A DNA stretch of 55,029 bases from an uncultured bacterium (GTDB lineage: Bacteria; Krumholzibacteriota; Krumholzibacteriia; Krumholzibacteriales; Krumholzibacteriaceae). Below the pieces are notes generated by a model. It was not told the origin of the DNA, searched no databases, and was given only the letters and a program-made list of their open reading frames with translations. Positions 16,397 to 55,029 of the stretch are shown here, in pieces. Positions within the stretch are counted from its first letter, which is position 1. Each line of letters opens with the position of its first letter. The position numbers were made by a program, and so were the translations under genes. The stretch spans positions 1 through 55,029 of the forward strand of contig CBDUYR010000016.1 of NCBI GenBank assembly GCA_965371515.1. Direction: 5' to 3'.

Positions 16397-16584
16397 AAAT
16401 TCCCTGCTGTGTTTGTGCAGGCGAAGACTGTTTTTTTGCCAACACTTTGAGCCCGGATCTCCAATATCCGGACTGGGATGCCGTGCCCGCCTGTGGCGGG
16501 AGGGTTGAACAGGTCGTGAGGATTTCCACCTTTTGAAGCAGGGCTTAAAAAGGTCTTTCGCGTACGGCACCGAGTGGGGAATTT
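16397..16584 (+). ncRNA. ssrS: 6S RNA
   Basis: About 185-nt self-complementary rod (AAATTCCC...GGGAATTT; GCGAAGAC/GTCTTTCGC) at the canonical zapA-6S-rny position. Confidence 0.8.
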
Positions 16585-40570: not shown

Positions 40571-42655
40571 ATGCGTTGGATGCAAGATTATCTCCTGATG
40601 GCGGCTATATATACGATTTTTATCGTATGTGCTTCATTATGGGGTCCCGCAGCCTGGTTTCTCATCCCGGTAGGTCTAGCTGTGGCCGCTATCGCCGGCT
40701 GGAGGCGGAGGCGCCTGCGCGGCAAGCGGATAGAGAACATACGGAAGAGACTGTCTAATCTCAAGGGCGAAGAGCTCTTCCTCGACGAGAATATCGGGGG
40801 CACTGGCGACGATGTCTTCTACAGGGTGATAATCACCCTCCTGACCGACCTCGAGCGGACCCTCTTCAAGCTCGTGGAAAAGAATATCCAGCTGCTCAGC
40901 CTGAAAGAGATCGGACGGAGCATTATAAGCTCAATGGACGAGAAGAAACTCGTCGATTCTGTTTTCGATTATCTGGTGAACGGTGTAGGTTACAAGGAAG
41001 CGGCGTTCGTAATACTCCGCAGGAAGAAGAAGTGTTTCCAGGCCATCGTGACTATCGAGAGGGCCACCAAGCTCGTACGACGCATCGTGAATTTCGGGCT
41101 CGAGGACCTGGACGGGGTTGTCAGGAACTCCCTGGCCACCGGGAAGGCCTTTCTCATCAAGGATGTCAGGATGCACCCCCTGATAGACGTCGAGGGGGAA
41201 CCTCTCTTCCCGGACAGTACGATGGAGTCTTATATCTGCGTGCCCCTGATGAAATCCTCAGGCGACTGGGAATGCTGCAAGGCCGATTCCTGTATCCTCA
41301 AACAGACGGGGACCTGCGACAAGGTCTCCGGCGACTCGACGCCTCTCCTGACCCATACGGAATGCCTGTCCTGTCCCGACATGCCCCTTCTCGGGGCACT
41401 TCTCGTCACAGACGGATACAGATCCACCTCCCTGACCAATATCGATCAGGTCACCGTTGAGACTGTAGGATCGCTCGTCAGCTCGAATATGGAGAACTGG
41501 ATGCTCTACCAGGAGCTGCGACAGGAAGAGAGGTTCCGGGAAAATGTCTTCGAGGGGATGATGCACGGGCTGATCGTGGCCGATATGGACGGAAACATCA
41601 CGTTCGCCAACAGGAGCGCGAGAGAGATGAGCGGGCTCGACGAGCAGGAGATACTCTCCAGGCATATCGACGAGCTCATCAGCAATGAAGATTCGGGAAA
41701 GGGACGCAACGGCTCAACGGTCTTCATGGCGCTGGATATTAAGGATCCGATAGCGTTTCACGAGGCCTACCTCATGAGTCCGGAAGTTTCAAGCATACCG
41801 GTCAGAATGAATGTATCCAGATTAATAGGCGACGACAACGAGATGCAGGGAGCAATTGTCCTCTTCTCCGATCTCAGCGAGATAAAGCGGATGGAAGAGG
41901 CGATCAGGCATCTGGACAACCTTGCCGTTCTCGGACGCTTCACTTCGGCAGTTGCCCACGAGATAAGAAATCCCCTTACCGGTATAGCAGCCGGTGTCCA
42001 GTACCTCGATCGGAGCACCGAACTGAACGAGGAGCACAAGGAGAACATTTCGCATATCCTCGGTGAGGTGGCGAGACTGAACAGGATCATCACAGATCTT
42101 TTCAAGGTTGCCAAACCGCGGGACCTCCTCTACCAGGAATCCGACCTGGCCTCGATCGTCGAGAAATCGTACAAGTCTGTCAGCGATGTCATCGAGTCCA
42201 GGAAGGTAGAATTCAGCATCAGTATCGCACAAGATATTCCGAAGGTAGAGGTCGATCCCGACCAGATCACCCAGGTGCTGATCAATCTGATAAAGAATGC
42301 TGCAGAAGCGGTCGAAGAGGGGGGTAGGGTCAGAGTAATAGCGAAACCGTTCGACGACAACGATCCCGAGATTCGGAGGCAGAAAGGGAAAGATACGATT
42401 ATCATAGATGTAGCGGACAACGGACCAGGGATAGACGGGAGGGACAAACAGAGGATATTCCTGCCGTTCTTCTCGAGGAAGAAAGGCGGGACGGGACTGG
42501 GACTTTTTGTGACTCACAGCATAATTCAGAACCATCAGGGGAGTATTAAGGTGATTTCGGAGCCCGGTGATGGTACGATATTCCGCGTCTATTTGCCTGT
42601 GACGCGTCCAGTACAGGGAGGAAAAGTTGAAACCGGTAGTGCTTCTAGTAGATGA
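40571..42655 (+). CDS. Membrane sensor histidine kinase (2 TM, GAF with Cys-rich insert, PAS, HisKA, HATPase)
   Basis: AHEIRNPL, QVLINLIKNA, DNGPG, PFFS.K.GGTGLGL. Confidence 0.95.
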   Translation: MRWMQDYLLMAAIYTIFIVCASLWGPAAWFLIPVGLAVAAIAGWRRRRLRGKRIENIRKRLSNLKGEELFLDENIGGTGDDVFYRVIITLLTDLERTLFKLVEKNIQLLSLKEIGRSIISSMDEKKLVDSVFDYLVNGVGYKEAAFVILRRKKKCFQAIVTIERATKLVRRIVNFGLEDLDGVVRNSLATGKAFLIKDVRMHPLIDVEGEPLFPDSTMESYICVPLMKSSGDWECCKADSCILKQTGTCDKVSGDSTPLLTHTECLSCPDMPLLGALLVTDGYRSTSLTNIDQVTVETVGSLVSSNMENWMLYQELRQEERFRENVFEGMMHGLIVADMDGNITFANRSAREMSGLDEQEILSRHIDELISNEDSGKGRNGSTVFMALDIKDPIAFHEAYLMSPEVSSIPVRMNVSRLIGDDNEMQGAIVLFSDLSEIKRMEEAIRHLDNLAVLGRFTSAVAHEIRNPLTGIAAGVQYLDRSTELNEEHKENISHILGEVARLNRIITDLFKVAKPRDLLYQESDLASIVEKSYKSVSDVIESRKVEFSISIAQDIPKVEVDPDQITQVLINLIKNAAEAVEEGGRVRVIAKPFDDNDPEIRRQKGKDTIIIDVADNGPGIDGRDKQRIFLPFFSRKKGGTGLGLFVTHSIIQNHQGSIKVISEPGDGTIFRVYLPVTRPVQGGKVETGSASSR

Positions 42656-44051
42656 CGAAGACACAATACGTCTGTTTCTCGAAAAAACGCTGAGGGACGA
42701 GGGGTATGAAGCCCTGACCGCCGCCACGGGTGAAGAGGCGCTCGAGCTGACGAGGAGCGAGCTGCCCGACCTTATCCTGCTGGATCTGAAGCTTCCTGAC
42801 ATCAATGGGATCGAGGTCCTTCAGCGGGTGAAGGAAGAGGTCCCCGAGGTCAGCGTCATAATGCTGACTGCCTTCGGTGATATAGAGACCGCAGTTTCCG
42901 CCATCAAGAAGGGCGCCTTCGATTTCGTAAGCAAACCCGTGAACCTCGAGCAGCTGCTCCTTGCAGTCGAGAAGGGACTGGAGTCACAGAAACTGAACAG
43001 GGAACTCTTCCAGCTCAGGCGCAGGCTCAAGATCGAGATGGACGACGGGCACGTTCCCGGGGAGAGCTCTCAGATGAAGGAGATCTACGATGTCGTGAGG
43101 ACGGTCGCTCAGAGCGAGACCACGACGGTTCTCATCCAGGGGGAGAGCGGGACGGGCAAGGAATTGATCGCAAATATGATTCACCGCTACAGTCCCCGGC
43201 ATGACAAGCCGTTCCTCGAGATCAACTGTGCCTCCCTGCCAGAGGAGCTGCTAGAGAGCGAACTCTTCGGGCACGAGAGGGGAGCCTTTACAGATGCAAA
43301 AACCCAGAAGGTTGGGCTGCTCGAACTGGCTAACAAGGGAACGCTGTTCCTCGACGAGATCGGGGAGATGAGTCTTACTATCCAGGTGAAACTTCTGAGA
43401 GTACTCGAGCGTATGACATTCAGGAGGGTAGGAGGCACCAAGGACATCAAGGTCAGTATCAGGATCATATCCGCGACAAACAGGGATCTCGAGGAGGCGG
43501 TCCGGGATAAGATCTTCCGCGAGGATCTCTATTACAGGCTCAAGGTGATCCCGATCTTTATCCCGCCGCTGCGTGAGCGCAAGGAGGACATTTACCTTCT
43601 CCTCAAGCATTTTCTCAGCAGGTTCAACACGCAGTTCAACAAGAATTTCGTAGAGATTGAAGACGAGACTTTCGAGATGATTCTCGCCTATCCATGGCCG
43701 GGAAACATCCGCGAGTTAAAAAACATAGTAGAACGGATAGTCCTCCTGGAGGACGATTCCGTCCTGAAACCGGCGCATCTGCCCGAGAGCATACGCAGCG
43801 GAGGTTCGGACGCCCCCCGGAAATCGGTTGTGCAGCAGATAGAAGTCTCTCTCGGAAGGCCGTTTCCCGATGATGGTATCGAATTCGAGGAGTTGGTCAG
43901 GGAGACGGAAATGGAATTGATATCCAAGGCGATGAAGGAAGCCGCCGGGAATCAGAGCAAGGCCTCGAGGCTCCTGCGTCTGAATCGCGACAAACTCAGA
44001 TACAGGCTGAAGAACTTCGATATGGGACATGGTGGAAACGGGGATGAATAG
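42627..44051 (+). CDS. Sigma54-dependent response regulator (NtrC/AtoC family)
   Basis: REC domain, GESGTGKE, GAFTDA, FLDEIGE, WPGNIREL, Fis HTH. Confidence 0.97.
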   Translation: MKPVVLLVDDEDTIRLFLEKTLRDEGYEALTAATGEEALELTRSELPDLILLDLKLPDINGIEVLQRVKEEVPEVSVIMLTAFGDIETAVSAIKKGAFDFVSKPVNLEQLLLAVEKGLESQKLNRELFQLRRRLKIEMDDGHVPGESSQMKEIYDVVRTVAQSETTTVLIQGESGTGKELIANMIHRYSPRHDKPFLEINCASLPEELLESELFGHERGAFTDAKTQKVGLLELANKGTLFLDEIGEMSLTIQVKLLRVLERMTFRRVGGTKDIKVSIRIISATNRDLEEAVRDKIFREDLYYRLKVIPIFIPPLRERKEDIYLLLKHFLSRFNTQFNKNFVEIEDETFEMILAYPWPGNIRELKNIVERIVLLEDDSVLKPAHLPESIRSGGSDAPRKSVVQQIEVSLGRPFPDDGIEFEELVRETEMELISKAMKEAAGNQSKASRLLRLNRDKLRYRLKNFDMGHGGNGDE

Positions 44052-51507: not shown

Positions 51508-51663
51508 ATCCAGATACCTCCTTCAGGTATAATAAACATCGAATCGTTCTCGATTTCAAGGAAAAACGCAACACCGGGTGGCCCTGAATTTCTCCGAAAA
51601 GCTTGACAGGTGACCTCTCTCTTGCGAAACTGGATACGGGCAGTCAGGACGCGGGAGGGCAAT

Positions 51664-54126
51664 GTGATCAGGTTCATCAGACTGGGATTGATCGCCGGCG
51701 CTATTCTGATCACTGTTCTCGACATCGCGGGGATATCGAGCCTGCCGAATACCCCCTACACCGGAATTCGCCATAACAACCTGGTATTCTTCGAATTCGA
51801 GGATGAAAGCCCCAACAGGGCCCTTCCGCTGGAGCGGGGCGACGAGATCGTGAAGGTCGACGGCGTTGCCATAAGGAATATCAACCATTTCCGAGCTCTG
51901 ACAGAATCGTCCCCGCAGGGCGAGTCGCAGCTCTATACTGTGGCCAGGGGACATTCTGTCCTGGAAGTGGCCGTTCAGAGTATTCCGCAGCCGGCCGCGA
52001 AGATATACAGGCGTATCTCGTACAGCCTGACGGCCTTCACCTTCATATTCCTGGGACTCGTCGTGATCCTCAGGAGACCGGACCAGCTGGGCTACCTTTT
52101 CACAGTAAACTACCTGACGATCGCGTTTCTGCTGACGATCCGCCCGGTCACTCCTGTGCCTTTCTTCCACATTGCCGGCGAACTCGTCCACGATTTTCTG
52201 TTGGTGTTTTTCCCCGCCTTTTTCCTTAACTTCTTCCTGATTTTCCCTGGAAAGGAGATCGGGAGCGGCACGAGACGGTCTATCATAAGGAAGGCCCTGT
52301 ATATCCCCCCTACCCTGATCTTCCTCGCCCTGTTCGTAGTGGCCATGCTCAGGTACTCCTCCGGGATCGAACACGGGATAGTTTTCGTGCTCAACGGCGT
52401 TACCTCTATCTGCTGGCTGCTGTACATGCTGGCCAGTGTCTTTTTCTTCGTCAGGACATACCTCACTTCCGACAATATCCAGAAAGTCAAGTTCAGGATA
52501 GCGGCTATCGGGCTGACACTCGGGATCCTTCCCCTGCTGCTTATAATGGTGATCCGATTCTTTCTTCCGGGAGTACATATCCCCCAGGAGCACGCAGCGG
52601 TGCTCTTTCTCTCATTCATCTCGGCCTCATTCGCCTATGCGATACTGAGGCATGATGTTTTCGACCTGAGCTTCGTCTTCAGGGCCGGGCTGTTCTTTGT
52701 GCTGGTGACGGTCGTCCTGGCCGCCACCCTCTTCATCTTCGGCGGCAACATGGGGGAAAGATATGCCGGATTCCTTTATGCGCGGTATTACTTCCTGGCT
52801 TTTCTCAGCGTTGTGCTGGTCATCGCAATCTTCATCCCGGGGCAAGCGAGCCTGCTAGGCATGGTAGACAGGATCTTCAACACAAACAGGAAGATCTTCA
52901 GGGAAAAGGTAATTGAGTTCTCGAGAAGCATTCAGTCGCACGGAACGCTGGAACAGATCACGGGATTCGTTACATGCACTCTAAGGGACCTGTTTGATGC
53001 TAAATACGTTCTTCTCTTTCTGGGTGACGGGGGCAGAAACTTCGCCATGGCTGGCAGCTGTCCCGATGGAACTGGAATGCCCCTCACCTCTTTACCAAGG
53101 GATACGGGGTTGATTAAACTGGCCGGCGATAAAAAACTGCCCCTGATGGTCGAATACTACGACCGTATCTGGATCAACAGCAACCTGGACAGGACATCAA
53201 GAGAATTCCTGTCCCTTTCGGGCGCTTCGGTTGTAGTTCCCCTCGTTGAACAGAGCGAACTCCTGGGGTTCGCCGTCCTCGGCAGGAAACTTTCAGGGAA
53301 GCCTTATGGCAGGATCGATGCGGAGATACTCGAGTTGCTCGGGGAGAGAAGCGCCGCCGCGGTCAGGAACCAGTTGCTATACAGGGATTCGAAAGAGAAA
53401 GAAAAGCTCGAGAAAGAGGTTCATCTGGCAAGTCAGATACAGAAACGCCTCCTCCCCACTGCTCCTCCCGTCATGAAAAACGCCGAGATACTCGGAGACA
53501 TGAGAACCAGCAGGGAAGTAGGAGGAGATTTCTACGACTACCTCGATCTTGCTCCTGGAATCACAGGTCTGGCCGTTGCCGATGTTTCTGGTAAAGGAAT
53601 ACCCGCCTCTCTCCTTATGACAACGCTTCAGGCGGGGTTCAGGGCGGAAGCAACGGCGGCGAAATCACCGGCCGATGTGTTGACTTCTCTCAACCGGCTG
53701 CTCTTCGATAGAAGCGACCTGAGCAGATTTGCTACGATCTTCTACGCTGTTTACGACGAGGAGACGAGAATACTGACTTACAGCAACGGAGGAGCCTTCC
53801 CTCCCATCGTCCTTCGAGGGGACGGTGGTATAACGAAGCTTCAACGCGGTGGTATACTCGTCGGCGTCGATCCGGACTCGAATTTCAGCAACGGTGTACT
53901 CAAACTTAGGAGCGGTGATCTGATAATATCCTATACGGATGGATTCATCGACCAGGAGAACCGTTCTGGAGAGTACTTCGGCGAGGATAGGCTCCTGAAC
54001 TTTCTGAAGGCCAACCGGTCGCTGGAGATGGACGAGCTGATGAAAAAGCTCTTCCGCGATGTGCTCGCGTTCGGAGACGGGAAAGTCATGGACGATATGA
54101 CAGCGGTGATTCTAAGGATCAAGTAG
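51664..54126 (+). CDS. Membrane PDZ + multi-TM + GAF + SpoIIE/PP2C protein phosphatase
   Basis: GDEIVKVDG (PDZ), VGGDFYD, ADVSGKG, YTDG, DDMT. GTG 51664 has a GGGAGG RBS. Confidence 0.93.
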   Translation: MIRFIRLGLIAGAILITVLDIAGISSLPNTPYTGIRHNNLVFFEFEDESPNRALPLERGDEIVKVDGVAIRNINHFRALTESSPQGESQLYTVARGHSVLEVAVQSIPQPAAKIYRRISYSLTAFTFIFLGLVVILRRPDQLGYLFTVNYLTIAFLLTIRPVTPVPFFHIAGELVHDFLLVFFPAFFLNFFLIFPGKEIGSGTRRSIIRKALYIPPTLIFLALFVVAMLRYSSGIEHGIVFVLNGVTSICWLLYMLASVFFFVRTYLTSDNIQKVKFRIAAIGLTLGILPLLLIMVIRFFLPGVHIPQEHAAVLFLSFISASFAYAILRHDVFDLSFVFRAGLFFVLVTVVLAATLFIFGGNMGERYAGFLYARYYFLAFLSVVLVIAIFIPGQASLLGMVDRIFNTNRKIFREKVIEFSRSIQSHGTLEQITGFVTCTLRDLFDAKYVLLFLGDGGRNFAMAGSCPDGTGMPLTSLPRDTGLIKLAGDKKLPLMVEYYDRIWINSNLDRTSREFLSLSGASVVVPLVEQSELLGFAVLGRKLSGKPYGRIDAEILELLGERSAAAVRNQLLYRDSKEKEKLEKEVHLASQIQKRLLPTAPPVMKNAEILGDMRTSREVGGDFYDYLDLAPGITGLAVADVSGKGIPASLLMTTLQAGFRAEATAAKSPADVLTSLNRLLFDRSDLSRFATIFYAVYDEETRILTYSNGGAFPPIVLRGDGGITKLQRGGILVGVDPDSNFSNGVLKLRSGDLIISYTDGFIDQENRSGEYFGEDRLLNFLKANRSLEMDELMKKLFRDVLAFGDGKVMDDMTAVILRIK

Positions 54127-54145
54127 GCAGATTTCAAGAAGAAAT

Positions 54146-54320
54146 GTAAAATGGGGAGCGGCGAACCACTCCCCATCTTTTTTTGGGACCATTCGGACTA
54201 CATTGCGTTACGTGTCTTTTCAACTCTACAGAGGCCTGAGCAGCAAGATCGCTTCGCTTGATAGAATTGGCTTGGGAGCCGATGAATCACGATCGCGCAG
54301 TCCGCTTGCCCCAAACTCTT
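54146..54320 (-). ncRNA. Candidate novel structured RNA (~175 nt)
   Basis: Lies between a TTGACA-16-TATAAT promoter and a terminator. Long interrupted stem: TTTGGGGC/GTCCCAAA, CGGACTGC/GTAGTCCG, CGTG/CACG. Confidence 0.6.
54147..54184. terminator. Bidirectional intrinsic terminator
   Basis: ATGGGGAG/CTCCCCAT stem with a T-tract on the plus strand and TTTT on the minus strand. Confidence 0.85.
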
Positions 54321-54325
54321 CCATG

Positions 54326-54353
54326 ATTATACAGCCAGCGAACAGCCTGTCAA
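54326..54353 (-). promoter_or_regulatory. Consensus sigma70 promoter TTGACA-N16-TATAAT
   Basis: Both hexamers are perfect, with an AT-rich UP-like region upstream. Confidence 0.85.
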
Positions 54354-54474
54354 GGGAAAAAACGAATAATTATCATTTTATAACTGCCGTAAATACAACA
54401 CCATACAGCACATACTTTACAAGCTGGGTTATATTAAGATGTATTAATGACAAAATGTTCTTGGGGGATAAGTT

Positions 54475-54514
54475 AAACGTTCCCGCCGATACACCCCTAT
54501 CGACGGGAACATTT
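54475..54514 (-). terminator. Long hairpin, probable terminator of the micropeptide transcript
   Basis: AAATGTTCCCGTCGATA / TATCGGCGGGAACGTTT; G-U pairs favour the minus strand. Confidence 0.65.
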
Positions 54515-54541
54515 ATACCTTTCAGGAGCGAGACAGAGTTT

Positions 54542-54589
54542 TCATCGAAGCCACCAGAACAAATCGATTATCAGTAGTATCGGCAGCAC
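54542..54589 (-). CDS. Candidate hydrophobic micropeptide MLPILLIIDLFWWLR (20 aa if started at ATG 54604)
   Basis: GGAGGTGA SD 5 nt before GTG, sigma54-type promoter upstream, hairpin downstream. Confidence 0.5.
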   Translation of the reverse strand: MLPILLIIDLFWWLR

Positions 54590-54665
54590 CGTGATCACCT
54601 CCATGGCAAATTTCTCAATCTCCCAGTGAAACGTGTCTCCCGGCAAGTCCGGCTGAAAATGGAGT

Positions 54666-54681
54666 TGCATACAGCGTGCCT
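54666..54681 (-). promoter_or_regulatory. Putative sigma54 promoter AGGCACGCTGTATGCA
   Basis: GGCACG-N5-TGCA gives exact GG-N10-GC spacing. Confidence 0.6.
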
Positions 54682-54976
54682 TTAAACGAAAAGACAGCCT
54701 GAGGAATTACGGGGAAGATTCAGCCTTTCTAAACAATTGTTAATGTAGGAGATAGTGTCTATAGAGAATGGTATCAAGCGATGTCCCTCTCTTGCCGGTA
54801 TATCCTGGACCGGTTAGAATGTTGCCGGATAGTGGATGGATATATGCAACTGGTCATGCAATATACCATGCCTGGAGAGAAGTAATTCTGCGAGTTGTAC
54901 GATATAGGTGAACTTATTGGCTAATGCAGGATTCATCGGTGGTCAGTATGGAATGCCTTGGCAGAAACATATTAAA

Positions 54977-55029
54977 TGGCGCCCCCGGCATGACTCGAAC
55001 ATGCGACACCCGGTTTAGGAAACCGGTGC
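54977..55029 (-). tRNA. tRNA-Arg(CCT), 3' part only (truncated by the window edge), CCA encoded
   Basis: Reverse complement: ...CCGGT-TT/CCT/AA-ACCGG..GCATGTTCGAGTCATGC-CGGGGGCGCCA. Confidence 0.93.

Follow-up and report, generated by a model that had tools for sequence, protein, structure and literature searches.

Stable structured RNAs of bacteria

6S RNA, SRP RNA, RNase P RNA and tmRNA have each proved to form the core of one of the cell's basic machines. 6S RNA (Rfam RF00013) and the actinobacterial 6S-like Ms1 are small, stand-alone, rod-shaped RNAs with paired ends, present in one copy per genome and probably abundant, and a second RNA of the 6S type is known in other bacteria. The bacterial SRP RNA (RF00169/RF01854) forms a hairpin-like rod with sequence-conserved apical internal loops that bind protein, and the stem of Y RNA and YrlA, the partners of Ro60, is closed by the 5' and 3' ends. 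Such closure is a feature of stable protein-bound RNAs, for example 6S, SRP and Y RNA. Besides these, there are orphan motifs, including Chlorobi-1, Acido-Lenti-1 and raiA, which are lineage-restricted, covarying and intergenic and have a promoter and a terminator. To our knowledge, few bacterial RNAs are conserved throughout a class with a consensus promoter and an almost unchanged sequence, and we know the Krumholzibacteriota only from metagenomes and are aware of no RNA biology described there.

The window analyzed, a stretch of 55,029 nucleotides from an uncultured bacterium of the Krumholzibacteriaceae (contig CBDUYR010000016.1 of assembly GCA_965371515.1), carries near its end a gene that we call the rod RNA. 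It is confirmed as a real, stand-alone structured non-coding RNA gene with its own promoter and terminator, and it represents a new RNA family, whose general kind, the lineage-restricted stable structured RNA, is familiar. The rod RNA bears the outward signs of 6S, SRP, RNase P and tmRNA, yet belongs to none of them. A literature search, in part poorly focused and so proving little, found no description of the family.

Transcription unit on the minus strand

The transcription unit is read from the minus strand and consists, in this order, of an A/T-rich stretch, a promoter, an irregular hairpin of ~137 nt and an intrinsic terminator; the original prediction of a promoter, a rod and a terminator was right in all main points. 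The sigma-70 promoter TTGACA-16-TATAAT (54353-54326, with the -35 TTGACA at 54353-54348, a 16-nt spacer and the -10 TATAAT at 54331-54326) matches the consensus at 12 of 12 positions. The 3.08-Mb genome holds nine such perfect sites against ~1.1 expected by chance, and since the promoter described here is one of the nine, the rod RNA is best regarded as a gene and not as a chance arrangement. A promoter scoring at least 9/12 stands at the same place in all 53 homologous loci examined (at least 11/12 in 46 of them), and 52 of the 53 have TTGACA as the -35 hexamer. The end of the -10 element is separated from the first base of the covariance model by 5-15 nt in 53/53 loci and by 6-7 nt in 32/53; because of this conserved spacing, transcription in most genera should start at the first base of helix P1. 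In the window's genus the predicted start, at about 54319-54321, would leave a 5' overhang of 4-6 nt before the rod. Next to the -35 element lies the A/T-rich stretch (54385-54354), with TGATAAT (54375-54369) and a T-run, formed by conserved columns of a 27-locus alignment, which may function like an UP element. The strength of the promoter argues for an abundant RNA.

The body of the rod RNA, as matched by the covariance model, measures 137 nt (54315-54179) and is followed by the predicted intrinsic terminator (54179-54148), a hairpin of 14 pairs, seven of them G-C, with an A-tract before and a U-tract after it. From its position, it could also act as terminator of the convergent SpoIIE gene. 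By the criteria of our own script, a separate hairpin with a T-run is found 3' of the rod in 35/53 loci, and in the alignment rows printed for families f6, f7 and f9, P1 mostly runs straight into a U-tract, so that P1 and U-tract make up the 3' end.

Assignment to the minus strand is based on two observations. First, the minus-strand fold of 54325-54146 (-69.2 kcal/mol) has a z-score of -4.32, with none of 200 shuffles as good, compared with -2.02 and 8/200 shuffles for the plus strand of the same region. Second, as had been argued from the single sequence, G-U pairs fit this strand: among 39 sequences, U-G stands at pair 51-136 in 23 and at pair 60-124 in 15, and it would turn into an A-C mismatch if the plus strand were read. 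The claim that the region holds no translatable ORF also agrees with the homologues, since the longest ORFs of 39 sequences reach only 9-42 aa and share no frame. Likewise, the locus has no downstream sense gene, because the next gene, coding for a SpoIIE/PP2C phosphatase (51610-54126, plus strand), is convergent. Covarying structure, absence of coding potential and transcription signals of its own are thus combined in one locus, as in structured non-coding RNAs generally.

A cis-regulatory leader or riboswitch, or a mere long terminator or insulator for the neighboring genes, would be in keeping with the terminator-like P1 and U-tract of the f6, f7 and f9 rows and with the same-strand ORF that follows the rod in 5/21 loci. 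These five ORFs are mutually unrelated (DUF2079, Peptidase_M19, MFS_1, MASE1 and one without a family), so that no conserved same-strand downstream gene was found among the 21 loci, and in 12/17 loci the next downstream feature is a convergent tRNA-Arg(CCU), all of which argues against a cis leader. A consensus promoter directly before the rod would, moreover, be purposeless for a terminator alone, and a cis-acting role of either kind is very hard to credit.

Secondary structure and covariation

In the family consensus the 5' and 3' ends pair to give a closed, irregular rod of ~45 pairs. Helix P1 joins UUUGGGGC (54315-54308) to GUCCCAAA (54189-54182); in other genera it reads AACGAGAC/GUCUCGUU or AACGAGAG/CUCUCGUU, and among 39 sequences all eight of its pairs change on both sides, with 97.1% of the cells paired. 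It is followed by the short variable helix P1b, by P2 (GACUAC/GUAGUC) with a 3-nt AAN bulge, by P3 (GCG/CGC), by the nearly invariant P4 (CGUG/CACG) and by P5 (CUGCUCUCA/UGA-AGGGCGG), which has one bulged base and covaries. An internal loop with an A opposite CUC separates P5 from P6 (GCC/GGC, 3 bp), beyond which the apical domain begins. Three of the helices first drawn from this single sequence, UUUGGGGC/GUCCCAAA, GGACUGC/GUAGUCC and GCG/CGC, recur in the consensus and covary; a fourth, CGUG/CACG, is also part of the consensus, where it hardly varies and shows no covariation.

Homologue covariation, which had been proposed as a check, is extensive: in the 39-sequence alignment 36 of 47 pairs carry compensatory changes on both sides, compared with 20.5 +/- 2.1 when the columns are shuffled (0/500 reach 36), and in a 49-sequence alignment 33 of 47 do so with 90.4% of the cells paired, both counts being biased towards the model's structure, to which these alignments were fitted. 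In the smaller alignment 88.3% of the cells pair, a value that falls to 31-48.5% when the partner is slid by 1-3 columns. Compensatory pairs in P1 and P2 are already present in a structure-blind MAFFT alignment. With RNAalifold, the outer structure came out poorly from the MAFFT alignment of 27 sequences, owing to misalignment of the own-genus P1, and for this reason the other genera were modeled first.

The two small hairpins originally proposed for the cap fared less well. Only 74% of the cells pair for GGCU/AGCC, which competes with P5 and P6; the covarying helix with which it competes (helix 6 of the covariation count) reads UCGGCUC/GAGUUGA plus CA/UG in this genome. The other, CUC/GAG, finds no support either: 87.7% of its cells pair, in columns that are almost invariant.

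Distribution of the rod RNA family

BLAST with a 221-nt query region matched 26 of the 36 further genomes available from its family, once each, and none of 24 genomes from outside it; in its own genome the RNA is single copy. The first covariance model, R1, was built from 24 sequences of other genera; it recovered the window copy at 107.8 bits and, with full-length matches in additional families, reached a total of 45 among 151 genomes. Shorter and more divergent copies were subsequently found by synteny in two more families. The second model, R2, built from 39 diverse sequences and applied to 151 genomes sampled from Candidatus Krumholzibacteriota, gave exactly one match per genome in 66 of them, distributed over seven of nine families. 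Within the window R2 scores the rod RNA at 105.6 bits (E 1.2e-25), and its next best match reaches 12.7 bits. Such a model allows the rod RNA to be annotated in Krumholzibacteriota genomes.

By family, the RNA was found in 25/32 genomes of f1, 1/1 of f2, 1/6 of f3, 5/61 of f4, 0/5 of f5, 15/17 of f6, 10/10 of f7, 0/9 of f8 and 8/9 of f9. At least two of the misses in f1 look like contig ends, as in genomes G001 and G024 the linked mini-ORF described below lies 18-256 nt from the end of its contig. Since the RNA is missing from 56 of the 61 f4 genomes and from all 14 genomes of f5 and f8 searched, it would appear to be dispensable or replaced in most of f4 and in f5 and f8. As far as sampled, the family is confined to the class Krumholzibacteriia and is conserved across much of it.

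A DNA pattern scan over 185,579 species genomes, with a pattern covering only the f1-type core, returned 69 stretches, 27 of which are true homologues by nhmmer. The record titles of these 27 name Krumholzibacteri* in 15 cases and only 'bacterium' in 11, and one names the Patescibacteria group. The remaining 42 stretches, from other phyla, fail with nhmmer, except for one partial match of 42 nt at E 0.00099. The record titled 'Patescibacteria group bacterium' (L042) contains a full rod RNA with an nhmmer score equal to that of the G010 locus, and probably represents a Krumholzibacteriota bin with a wrong taxonomic label.

Comparison with known RNA families

The 4227 models of Rfam 15 were searched at E<=10 against window positions 53900-55029 and 20 diverse homologous loci. 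As a check of this kind had been suggested at the outset, it is worth stating that no credible match was obtained at the rod RNA locus and that no family matched the rod recurrently in the 20 loci. Like the orphan motifs as they are generally described, the rod RNA is lineage-restricted, covarying and intergenic, with a promoter and a terminator; it differs from them as a family of its own, resembling none of the Rfam models at that threshold.

A canonical 6S RNA had been placed near 16.4 kb, and it is indeed found at 16398-16584 on the plus strand with 74.7 bits (gathering threshold of RF00013, 46.4 bits), distinct from the rod RNA. The leading idea for the rod itself had been a decoy binding RNA polymerase in the manner of 6S or Ms1, with which it shares its small size (~137 nt, or ~170 nt with the terminator), stand-alone gene, rod shape, paired ends, single copy and probable abundance; a sigma-70-family gene nearby in relatives fits the same idea. 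Against it, RF00013 gave no signal at E<=10 at the locus or over the 20 homologous loci, and the rod family model finds no match at the genome's 6S locus. The two-sided central bubble of 6S, set between two long arms, is absent from the consensus, which is one continuous irregular arm with an apical domain, its largest loop being a one-sided variable linker of 5-11 nt. In the rod RNA, furthermore, sequence as well as shape is conserved, whereas the sequence of 6S is usually far less so. A polymerase decoy is accordingly a highly unlikely explanation; what stands of the first interpretation is a stand-alone structured RNA distinct from 6S, and its three suggestions of a decoy, a protein sponge and an antitoxin find no support in the present data. 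In the 70 nt upstream of the 6S RNA a comparable consensus promoter was not visible by eye, and that RNA may be processed from a longer transcript.

The hairpin-like rod with sequence-conserved apical loops recalls SRP RNA, but the SRP RNA of this genome is encoded elsewhere, on contig C4 (G000:C4:54924-55189, 205 bits), and neither RF00169 nor RF01854 matches the rod RNA locus. The genes for RNase P RNA and tmRNA are also located elsewhere in the genome. With Y RNA and YrlA the rod RNA shares a stem closed by its 5' and 3' ends and a presumed binding of protein; it differs in its neighboring genes and in the lack of an Rfam match, and profile searches of this 99.6%-complete genome found no gene for Ro60/TROVE (PF05731). 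The same searches found no gene for CsrA (PF02599) or Hfq (PF17209), and these absences weigh against a Y RNA, a Csr sponge and an Hfq-type sRNA. The sponge that had been suggested is further disfavored by the lack of repeated binding motifs, no repeated GGA being seen by eye in the conserved columns of the rod. The sole match to PrrB_RsmZ (16.6 bits, gathering threshold 44) is to the plus strand (54033-54184) and shares only 6 nt with the rod.

Apical domain and proposed mode of action

The two parts of the rod RNA are conserved in different ways. The outer helices covary, and an apical domain of ~45 nt is nearly invariant in sequence; its invariant alignment columns span 54266-54229. The domain is made up, in order, of GCC (the 5' strand of P6), a variable linker, single-stranded AGCGAA, a hairpin GCG-loop-UGC and GGCCUCUG (54236-54229), with AGCGAAGCG at 54258-54250 and GCUGC at 54244-54240 forming the hairpin. 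Apical helices 7-9 and the loops that flank them hardly vary, so that the conservation is one of sequence, inside helices as well as in loops. Only the hairpin register G-C, C-G, G-U/C fits all 36 sequences having the hairpin, and it leaves the invariant AGCGAA unpaired. The alternative register preferred by the energy fold of this genome fails in 17-18 of the 36.

We favor, at a probability of roughly 45%, the reading that the rod RNA is stable and strongly expressed, binds a protein through its apical domain and acts in trans. A dedicated protein partner is preferred because the rod is conserved as pairing and the apical ~45 nt as sequence, in combination with closed ends, a consensus promoter and a UP-like element. 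According to this proposal, the RNA would be transcribed from the consensus sigma-70 promoter, which lies a few bases before P1, to an intrinsic terminator, provided by the separate hairpin in the genera of the window's family and by P1 and the U-tract in other families. The helices of the rod, where only the pairing is conserved, would be a stabilizing handle. The working part would be the apical third, comprising the A/CUC internal loop, the GCC/GGC helix, single-stranded AGCGAA, the short hairpin and the strand GGCCUCUGA-GGG, and it would present a specific binding site to the protein partner, for which the RNA might act as a scaffold, a cofactor or a sequestering partner. The AGCGAAGCG hairpin cannot be the sole functional site, because three f4 members (L129, L132 and L135) keep P1-P6 and have replaced it with unrelated longer hairpins; these variants adjoin TPR_21 with neither phosphatase nor mini-ORF beside them. 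RRM-domain genes are candidate partners, three of them being present in this genome. As they occur in 150/151 genomes, they do not track the presence or absence of the rod RNA. The partner, once found, would give access to a new RNA-protein machine or to a new regulatory principle.

The main rival to protein binding is an sRNA that base-pairs in trans, with AGCGAA, CUC and GGCCUCUGA as seeds for mRNAs and the rod serving only for stability. The invariant unpaired apical sequence is compatible with it, AGCGAA looking equally like a seed, and many sRNAs have a 3' hairpin with a U-tract, found here along with the RNA's own promoter. Several features do not suit such an RNA. Complementarity to the rod elsewhere in the genome does not exceed 14 nt, all matches being at chance level (E>=1.2), and no hfq gene was found, as mentioned. 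A seed would also need less than the ~45 nt that are nearly invariant here and lie in large part within helices, and closed ends with a long rod are atypical of seed-type sRNAs. We consider this explanation unlikely.

Genomic neighborhood

The apparent ancestral gene order is TPR_21 on the minus strand, then SpoIIE/PP2C phosphatase, mini-ORF and rod RNA on the plus strand, followed by a convergent tRNA-Arg(CCU), a phosphoribosyltransferase and a sigma-70-family gene. In the window's genus, in contrast to all other genera examined, a block of ~0.85 kb with the mini-ORF and the rod RNA (54148-54980) is inverted in place, the SpoIIE gene and the tRNA-Arg(CCU) not having moved. The tRNA of the window (54980-55029, minus strand) is a 3' part with anticodon loop CCU, cut by the window end; full-length tRNA-Arg(CCU) was identified by ARAGORN in 13/17 related loci.

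The mini-ORF (54589-54542, minus strand) has a GTG start and encodes MLPILLIIDLFWWLR in 15 codons plus stop, with a strong Shine-Dalgarno sequence, GGAGG, at 54602-54598. Upstream, after a leader of ~65 nt, lies a predicted -24/-12 box, GGCACG-N5-TGC (54680-54667, minus strand), judged by what we take to be the sigma-54 consensus and found by regular expression in 18/24 loci. The ORF is followed by a conserved hairpin or terminator with a T-run (54510-54479, minus strand), with covariation of the stem and a conserved loop in a 12-locus alignment. Its homologues have 15-22 codons and encode hydrophobic peptides with an Asp in mid-helix and a basic tail; the motif (I/L/V)D(L/I)xWW(L/M)R occurs in 119/151 genomes, 117 of which have it only once. 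Neither Pfam nor NCBIfam yielded a family for the peptide, one of six showing a sub-threshold resemblance to a C-terminal membrane-sorting domain. Judging from these sequence features, the mini-ORF probably encodes an unannotated membrane micro-protein that works with the SpoIIE phosphatase next to it; a role as an arrest or leader peptide is also conceivable. This linked, unannotated ORF beside a PP2C phosphatase provides a second concrete lead.

The phosphatase has 838 aa, with a GAF domain and a hydrophobic N-terminal half (Pfam PF07228, E 2.7e-49). Its gene adjoins in 18/21 loci, in 16 of the 21 upstream on the same strand and in two, those of the window's genus, convergent with the rod RNA; in the other three, all from f4, phosphatase and mini-ORF have moved away and the rod RNA stands directly beside TPR_21. 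In seven f4 loci without a rod RNA within 2 kb, an ORF of ~600-650 aa still ends just upstream of the mini-ORF.

Could the rod RNA regulate the sigma-54-driven mini-ORF and the SpoIIE/PP2C pathway, or itself be their regulated partner, for instance through read-through or a common signaling step? Of 60 genomes with both located, 55 have the rod downstream of the mini-ORF motif and on its strand, at a distance of 179-383 nt (median 242); the pair was inverted as a single block in the window's genus, and the SpoIIE gene is as constant a neighbor as described. Other findings argue against coupling. In the five exceptions to the tandem, which are all the f4 genomes keeping both, mini-ORF and rod are not linked but lie 160 kb from each other or on different contigs; f4 retains the mini-ORF in 59/61 genomes against 5/61 for the rod RNA; and the mini-ORF has a hairpin and T-run of its own. 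Functional coupling to these neighbors is thus distinctly doubtful.

Pairing between the two transcripts was evaluated in ten genomes with 20 shuffles each, by an unrestricted duplexfold that yields unrealistically long duplexes and so shows only that the real pairs are no better than shuffles: the energies never went beyond the best of the 20 and were weaker than the shuffle median in 5/10 genomes. The linkage of mini-ORF and rod may therefore reflect inherited gene order and not function. The same result bears on the antitoxin that had been suggested, a type I antitoxin RNA for the small hydrophobic peptide of 15-22 aa encoded next door, as does the arrangement of the two genes, which are in same-strand tandem and do not overlap. 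The sole common complement is 7 nt long, rod CGUGAUC against the ribosome-binding region of the mini-ORF; it is not conserved by reading of the alignment, being absent from L024 and L015, and was judged to be due to chance. Given also that the peptide persists without the rod RNA in most f4 genomes, an antitoxin role has next to no likelihood.

A bolder extension of the protein-binding reading makes the rod RNA the RNA subunit of a lineage-specific ribonucleoprotein, working in one signaling unit with the sigma-54-controlled membrane micro-protein and the membrane SpoIIE/PP2C phosphatase, near which relatives have a sigma-70-family gene. We regard this as improbable; if true, it would place an abundant RNA in partner-switching or sigma-factor control, a role undescribed for any bacterial RNA family. 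The probability left by all these readings belongs to explanations not considered here.

An NtrC-type sigma-54 activator with receiver, Sigma54_activat and HTH_8 domains is encoded in the window at 42627-44051 on the plus strand, ~10 kb from the sigma-54-type box.
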